Of a stretch of DNA of 48,934 bases, positions 46,671 through 47,988 are shown one piece after another (the stretch's first letter is position 1; each line of letters opens with the position of its first letter). The stretch is taken from IMG/VR virus record IMGVR_UViG_2531839665_000028, one strand, 5' to 3'. The notes below the pieces were generated by a model. It had not been told where the DNA came from. It did no database searches and saw only the letters and a program-made list of their open reading frames with translations. Position numbers and translations under genes: made by a program. This stretch comes from a virus (taxonomy: Duplodnaviria > Heunggongvirae > Uroviricota > Caudoviricetes).

Positions 46671-47988
46671 GTGAATATGGCAGTAAAGATTTCAGGTGTA
46701 CTGAAAGACGGCACAGGAAAACCGGTACAGAACTGCACCATTCAACTGAAAGCCAGACGGACCAGCAGCACGGTGGTGGTGAACACGGTGGCCTCTGAAA
46801 ATCCGGATGAAGCCGGTCGTTACAGCATGGACGTTGAGTACGGTCAGTACAGCGTCATTCTGTTGGTGGAAGGATTCCCGCCGTCACATGCCGGGACCAT
46901 CACCGTGTATGAAGATTCTCAACCGGGTACGCTGAATGATTTTCTCGGTGCCATGTCGGAGGATGACGTCCGGCCGGAGGCACTGCGTCGTTTTGAACTG
47001 ATGGTGGAAGAAGCGGCGCGTCACGCTGAGGAGGCGAAGAAGAATGCCGGAGAGGCGGAGACGTCCGCGAGGAATGCCGGCATATCAGCCAGTCAGGCAG
47101 AAGAGAGCGCTGCAAATGCTGACACTTCAGCAGGGGATGCATCGGAGTCAGCCCGGCAGGCGGCAGAAAGTGCAGCCTCAGCAAAGCAGTCAGAGGATGC
47201 GTCCTCGTCCTCGGCTTCTGCGGCCGCTCAAAAAGCCAGTGAGTCATCACAAAGTGCAGCAGAAGCTGAATTGTCAAGAAAGACGGCAGAAAGTGCAGCC
47301 GGTAATGCAGCCAGGGATGCAACGACCGCAACAGAAAAAGCCCGGGAGTCAGCAGAAAGCGCACAGTCAGCGGAACAAAGCAGGATAGCGGCGGAAGAGG
47401 CCGTAAACCGATCCCCACCGTGGTGGGACCTCCCGGGCCAAAGGGGGAACAGGGGCCCGCGGGTCCTCAGGGGCCGAAGGGTGATAAGGGAGAGCGCGGT
47501 GACACCGGCCCTGTCGGGGCAACCGGCGAACGGGGACCGGCAGGTGATGCTGGTCCGGCAGGCCCGCAGGGGCCGAAAGGTGACAGGGGAGAGCGGGGAG
47601 AGACCGGTCTGACGGGAAATGCAGGTCCACAGGGTCCAAAGGGAGATACCGGTACGGCAGGCCCGGCAGGCCCACAGGGACCGAAAGGAGAAACAGGTGC
47701 GGCTGGCCCGGTGGGGCAACCGGACCTCAGGGACCGAAGGGCGACCCGGGGGAGACACAAATCCGTTTTCGTCTGGGGCCGGCGAGCATTATTGAGACAA
47801 ACAGCAATGGCTGGTTCCCGGATACAGATGGCGCACTCATCACCGGACTGACCTTTCTTGACCCCAAAGATGCCACACGGGTTCAGGGTTTTTTTCAGCA
47901 TTTGCAGGTCAGGTTTGGTGACGGGCCGTGGCAGGATGTCAAGGGGCTGGATGAAGTGGGCAGTGATACAGGCAGAACAGGAGAATGA
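46671..47988 (+). pseudogene. Side tail fibre protein with collagen-like Gly-X-Y repeat; two apparent 1-nt frameshifts
   Basis: N-terminus MAVKISGVLKDGTGKPVQNCTIQLKARR... resembles lambda Stf. Frame shifts 0 to 2 at a C4 tract (47413-47416) and 2 to 1 near 47722; the middle part encodes about 30 Gly-X-Y triplets; the C-terminal domain ends at the TGA at 47986-47988. Confidence 0.6.

Follow-up and report, generated by a model that had tools for sequence, protein, structure and literature searches.

The window analysed here is a 48,934-nt stretch of DNA from a tailed virus (Caudoviricetes; IMG/VR record IMGVR_UViG_2531839665_000028), identical to part of a draft whole-genome shotgun contig (GCA_000194495.2, AFAA02000036.1, about 227820-276753). 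It contains a 1312-nt plus-strand locus (46677-47988) that, as written, is read in three successive frames. Judged by its sequence, the locus encodes the side tail fibre of an Escherichia coli lambda-like (long, non-contractile tail) prophage and falls into the class of the enterohaemorrhagic E. coli (EHEC) prophage collagen-like protein A, EPclA. Two bases are missing from the gene; most likely, their absence does not belong to the organism but reflects consensus errors at multi-copy prophage sequence in the draft assembly.

Comparison with intact homologues, as the earlier note on this DNA had recommended, revealed a single 1314-nt open reading frame (ORF) of 437 aa in the homologues and a window short of exactly two bases. 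At the first site, a single A is found at 47411 where the homologues have two, such that CCGAATCCCC in the homologues reads CCGATCCCC in the window. The earlier note had tied this shift to the C4 tract at 47413-47416; that tract is unaltered, the missing base being the A at 47410/47411, two bases upstream of it and in the linker that precedes the collagen repeat. The second loss, which the note had sought at a G run near 47722, is that of one G from a G5 run, now the G4 at 47713-47716. Both sites shift the reading frame by -1, and uncorrected frame 1 reads through to a stop at 47610-47612. Restoring the two bases, both of which are present in every close homologue, produced one 437-aa ORF in the order PfN-PCoil-Col-PfC, its coil being 116 aa and its collagen domain 111 aa (37 triplets) long, i.e. 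the continuous collagen-like fibre ORF that the note had expected of a corrected sequence.

Frame 1 opens at the ATG at 46677 (MAVKISGVLKDG...) and encodes a protein running from MAVKISG... through ...AEEAVNR. Its N-terminal domain, PfN, scores 233 bits against a Pfam cut-off of 26.6, and residues 1-93 match the collar domain of lambda Stf at 87 of 93 positions (PDB 9E7M/9MGH), bearing out the note's description of the N-terminus as lambda Stf-like. The following PCoil segment, whose start overlaps the last 4 residues of the PfN Pfam match, contains 38 Ala, 25 Ser and 15 Glu, with Leu, Val and Ile amounting to 4 in total. Frame 2 (from 47420/47426) holds 32 unbroken Gly-X-Y triplets at 47426-47713 (Pfam Collagen, PF01391, E = 2.5e-18), in line with the roughly 30 that had been reported for this frame, and frame 3 (from 47713) adds 5 further triplets at 47713-47757. 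Thus, the ORF as written is discontinuous and its 37 triplets are split 32 + 5 between two frames. The collagen segment is rich in G+C (70.5% vs 52% for the whole window) and includes a 45-nt internal repeat (47621-47711). Frame 3 also encodes the C-terminal domain that the note had placed there, PfC, and terminates at the TGA at 47986-47988. Neither displaced frame of the fibre gene contains a stop codon, and the Pfam scores of the domains in these frames equal those of intact copies. Thirty-seven consecutive triplets together with three Pfam domains ordered as in intact homologues are far beyond chance.

Two kinds of competing gene call were discarded. A GTG at 46671 was ruled out as the start of the fibre gene, since every annotated homologue starts at the counterpart of the ATG at 46677. 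Three minus-strand ORFs over the collagen region (47467-48273, 47228-47758 and 47367-47675) are unannotated in relatives, and we treat them not as genes but as by-products of a stop-free, GC-rich triplet repeat.

EPclA is the commonest collagen-like protein of EHEC prophages and has the layout PfN - PCoil (116) - Col (111) - PfC, 437 aa, as exemplified by ECs2717 and ECs2941 of O157:H7 Sakai and by H0004 of phage VT1-Sakai (Ghosh et al. 2012, PLoS One 7:e37872, PMC3368898). We assigned the window gene to EPclA because its corrected dimensions and domain order equal those of this protein. Indeed, PfN, the PCoil composition, a single Col domain (once the G is restored), PfC and the genomic position were all found, the gene following J and lom as it does in VT1-Sakai and in hundreds of prophages of EHEC and enteropathogenic E. 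coli. Its PCoil matches that of EPclA in length and composition, with the coiled-coil conformation being predicted. At the DNA level, the gene is 97.9-99.2% identical to many EPclA copies, with E. coli EPSSH018 (99.2%) and phage VT1-Sakai (H0004, 97.9%) as examples of close homologues. It differs from EPclA in being, as written, two bases short and divided among three frames, a state whose described equivalent is EPclA*, the defective class defined by 'frame-loss between domains' and represented by ECs2159/ECs2158 of Sakai Sp11 (PMC3368898). Gene family, architecture and frameshifted variants have therefore all been published already, and nothing about them is new here.

The fibre gene is not the only one in the window to be broken by single-base indels, as three more that are private to this sequence disrupt two other phage genes within its 49 kb. 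An extra A at 20469 (TTTAAAGG vs TTTAAGG in relatives) splits a SASA-family (NanS-p-like) carbohydrate esterase into two ORFs (18973-20574 and 20426-20911); the esterase is a single 645-aa ORF in strain JB2, and none of 625 matching complete-genome records carried the insertion. Two deletions 6 nt apart, A4>A3 at 32895 and C5>C4 at 32901, split the ORF that follows the portal gene (32257-32910 and 32855-33640), and no matching complete-genome record had both together. They fall in one copy of a 162-nt tandem repeat (32482-33174; 4.3 copies, 98% matches) whose consensus unit, as determined by Tandem Repeats Finder, keeps A4 and C5. The post-portal region is ~160 nt longer here than in JB2 and FORC_028, which corresponds to one extra repeat unit minus the two bases. 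All five indels lie in homopolymers, four of them being contractions, and all five lie in segments with several copies per genome.

How often the two fibre lesions recur was gauged in complete E. coli genomes. A 61-nt probe across site 1 matched 712 records (~4144 places in 706 genomes), and the form seen in the window occurred in 0 of the 712 records and 0 of the ~4144 places, the best matches all carrying the extra A (98.4%). The exact site 1 pattern was likewise absent from a species-representative genome collection and from viral contigs (IMG/VR). In the protein collection, truncated fibre products were found for the source contig AFAA02000036.1 and for none beyond it, and the corrected 437-aa protein was absent as an exact sequence. 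Site 2 behaved differently: with a 63-nt probe, the G4 form was present in 7 of 700 complete E. coli records, and the three such copies that we inspected were all labelled 'frameshifted' by the Prokaryotic Genome Annotation Pipeline (PGAP). As a control, we searched for an invented G5>G4 contraction at another G5 run of the fibre gene (47748-47752), which is intact in the window; this form was present in 4 of 699 records, and one genome, SMN152SH1, appeared in both G4 lists. Because site 2 contraction (7/700) is no commoner than the control (4/699), we read it as generic homopolymer noise. G5 contraction is a low-level background at any such run, be it mutational or technical, and not a site-specific switch. 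Overall, more than 99.8% of the homologous copies form one continuous ORF.

These frequencies bear directly on the idea that the frame changes are functional, either as programmed -1 slippage yielding a low level of full-length fibre or as homopolymer phase variation turning the gene on and off. Both shifts are -1, and each coincides with or adjoins a run that could allow a P-site tRNA to pair again in the -1 frame (candidate slip sites C_CCA at 47414-47417 and G_GGG at 47713-47716), and G5>G4 recurs in 7 other genomes. No canonical X_XXY_YYZ heptamer is present, site 1 is unique to the source contig, and two independent unstimulated slips would yield negligible product. Known contingency tracts are far longer than these runs of 4-5 bases. 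We reject programmed frameshifting and phase variation because the control equals site 2 and because almost all homologous copies are continuous, so that recoding is unneeded; a functional role of this kind is scarcely credible. If the deletions are real, slippage at short homopolymers (G5<->G4, AA<->A) might still act as a low-frequency on/off switch of the distal side fibre in the resident prophage population, a suggestion that we regard as very improbable.

The principal alternative to consensus error is that both deletions are real and very recent and inactivate the side fibre. The sole product of the gene would then be a 311-residue PfN-PCoil fragment whose 66-residue tail is out of frame, any virions would lack the collagen stalk and the PfC knob, much as laboratory lambda (PaPa) lacks side fibres, and the prophage, with its esterase and post-portal genes also broken, would be beginning to decay. 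Such events have precedents: frameshifted EPclA copies are reported in the finished Sakai genome (the Sp11 pair named above, which we take as genuine) and in EDL933 (PMC3368898), a frameshift in lambda stf is documented (PMC12617516), and fibre copies labelled 'frameshifted' by PGAP, including the three inspected G4 copies, occur in complete genomes. Moreover, a further frameshift would be neutral in a non-essential fibre gene that had already been broken.

Several further observations weigh against consensus error. The errors are inferred, not seen in reads, and AA>A is atypical of the errors made at long homopolymers. Over ~7.9 kb, the unique chromosomal sequence that adjoins the prophage on the right (ydfI, ydfZ, rspR, ydfG, dcp) aligned gap-free and with one mismatch to finished genomes of the same lineage (O103:H2, O45:H2 and O121), which argues that base calling was good where the sequence is unique. 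The J protein encoded by this prophage likewise occurs in the source contig alone, and the prophage has no near-identical sequenced relative; privacy of the indels alone therefore cannot separate error from mutation.

What tips the balance is the pattern of the changes. Compared with seven homologous copies, the fibre gene has 0 private substitutions, yet 2 indels. The window as a whole has five private single-base indels, yet no insertion sequence, deletion or nonsense codon that would signal decay, and the post-portal pair sits 6 nt apart inside a near-perfect tandem repeat. The same clustered-indel signature was seen in a sister draft assembly of a neighbouring accession series (AEZS02000005.1, GCA_000215205.2; locus L011, 5899-7300), in which 1.4 kb of prophage DNA showed six single-base gaps when set against a finished O103:H2 genome of 99.85% identity. 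The gaps break up the gene for the terminase small subunit, which the finished genome has intact; the chromosomal backbone of the sister assembly showed zero gaps against that genome. The pattern suggests that indel errors cluster in prophage regions across this accession series. Taken together, we favour consensus error for the two missing bases and consider real, recent inactivation of the fibre rather unlikely. Of the two explanations offered in the earlier note, sequencing error in a GC-rich repeat is thus favoured as to error and amended as to place, the first indel lying in the linker outside the repeat. Inactivation of the fibre survives as the rival just discussed, in a prophage that is not visibly cryptic: its lambdoid gene set is complete from integrase to tail fibre, save that single-base indels break three of the genes.

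With respect to lambda itself, the virion structure of Ur-lambda has shown that twelve Stf copies form a collar at the gpV/gpM junction, giving four trimeric side fibres, and laboratory lambda (PaPa) is without them owing to its stf frameshift (PMC12617516). The window protein has the same N-terminal collar domain, and its gene is likewise downstream of J and lom; as the window sequence is written, a frameshift removes the distal fibre, as in laboratory lambda stf (orf-401/orf-314). Shaft and tip are unrelated: lambda Stf has a coiled coil of great length followed by a gp37-like distal domain, and its family is marked by a distal receptor-binding domain with Pf2 repeats and a Tfa chaperone gene downstream, whereas in the window protein the coil is Ala/Ser-rich and leads to a collagen triple helix and PfC. 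The gene downstream of the fibre also differs from the lambda arrangement in carrying PF06820; a Pfam search returned neither PF03406 nor any tail-fibre-assembly (lambda Tfa-type chaperone) family. The collar domain is all that the window protein shares with lambda Stf. EPclB, the tail fibre of short-tailed Shiga toxin 2 (Stx2) phages (e.g. ECs1228 of Sp5 and Z1483 of 933W; PMC3368898), has the PfN, PCoil, Col and PfC modules in common with the window gene, which differs from it in having one Col domain.

If the missing bases are consensus errors, the true gene would be one continuous ORF, and the intact 437-residue chain would be expected to trimerise. Its N-terminal ~93 residues would dock the fibre on the tail, as shown for lambda Stf, to which they are so nearly identical; the Ala/Ser/Glu-rich segment would form a trimeric coiled coil, as shown for EPclA homologues; and the 37 Gly-X-Y triplets would build a collagen triple-helix stalk, as shown for homologues. 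PfC, a distal trimerisation knob in homologues, would presumably contact the host surface or a partner protein, in a putative receptor role. Experiments on recombinant EPclA showed that it is trimeric, with a collagen triple helix that is thermally stable, an alpha-helical PCoil that forms trimers and a PfC domain that trimerises, and that it has a dumbbell shape in electron microscopy (PMC3368898). Given ~98% sequence identity, the protein encoded in the window probably forms such a trimer with a stable triple helix as well. The coordinates of the gene, its domains, the two lesions and the adjoining features are compiled in the table.

Coordinates of the fibre gene, its domains and lesions, and adjoining features in the window
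Feature	Position	Strand	Basis or remark
EPclA-type collagen-like side tail fibre gene	46677..47988	+	homologue alignment, Pfam domains
PfN (Pfam PF08400, phage_tail_N), residues 1-133	46677..47075	+	E = 8.7e-70
PCoil, 116-residue low-complexity segment ending ...AEEAVNR	47064..47411	+	composition
Frameshift site 1, AA>A	47410..47411	+	alignment; frame 1 -> frame 2
Collagen (Gly-X-Y) domain (Col), 37 triplets	47426..47757	+	Pfam, triplet count
Frameshift site 2, G5>G4	47713..47716	+	alignment; frame 2 -> frame 3
PfC (Pfam PF06820, Phage_fiber_C), frame 3	47761..47952	+	E = 8.7e-38
Tail-tip gene J	42470-45946		upstream of fibre gene
lom	46013-46612		between J and fibre gene
Terminator-like hairpin and T-run	46639..46660	+	8-bp stem, 7 G-C pairs, then TTTTTT
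89-aa ORF with second Phage_fiber_C (PF06820) domain	47990..48259	+	Pfam

The terminator-like hairpin separates lom from the fibre gene. Downstream, the ATG of the 89-aa ORF lies 1 nt past the fibre stop; this ORF is intact in the window and in relatives, where it is labelled 'phage tail fiber C-terminal domain-containing protein' or 'tail assembly protein'. Directly beyond the fibre module follows type III effector cargo, with an NleG-family protein (48365-48934; PF06416, E = 1.4e-42) and, just past the window end, a Peptidase_M91 (NleD-like) gene (locus L009, 10788-11486). In the tail-tip gene J, comparison with FORC_028 revealed a +1/-1 indel pair 4 nt apart at 45403-45407 (GGACGGGC-GAC vs GGA-GGGCAGGC), which leaves the 1158-aa J ORF in frame. 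At the portal locus (window 30896-33640), PGAP reports a single 'frameshifted phage portal protein' in both inspected relatives (L003 8396-10980; L004 31678-34262). Both relatives have the same two intact overlapping ORFs there, of 454 aa and 407 aa with an ATGA overlap, so the label seems to stem from the way such genes are customarily annotated and not from a real frameshift.

Three tRNA genes (18191-18442), with a CAT anticodon (tRNA-Ile in JB2), Arg-TCG and Arg-TCT, precede the esterase by ~0.5 kb. The corresponding part of JB2, at 99% identity, has no annotated gene in the interval from the tRNAs to the esterase. Stx phages carry stx at this position, so the prophage may be an Stx-phage-like element devoid of the toxin genes.

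The ends of the prophage adjoin different parts of the chromosome, with mlrA and the integrase on the left (window 1-1361) and, beyond NleG and the M91 peptidase, ydfJ'-ydfI-ydfZ-rspR-ydfG-dcp on the right (L009 10788-20570). To the right of ~48194, the sequence shows 100% identity to the prophage remnant that lies on the ydfJ side in the sister assembly. One prophage with two different chromosomal flanks implies an inversion, inter-prophage recombination or a chimeric contig whose parts were linked across repeated phage sequence.

For the draft contig, at least 5 single-base indels in 49 kb of prophage sequence constitute a quality flag, and genes of its prophage regions that are called as pseudogenes (tail fibre, NanS-p-like esterase, post-portal gene) are no evidence of decay without a check of the reads. 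The result otherwise carries little biological weight, as the gene belongs to an ordinary, already described family. Were the improbable slippage switch nonetheless to operate, collar-only or fibre-less virions with altered host range would follow. And if the frameshifts are real, this prophage would provide a natural counterpart of the fibre-less state of laboratory lambda, in itself a modest observation.
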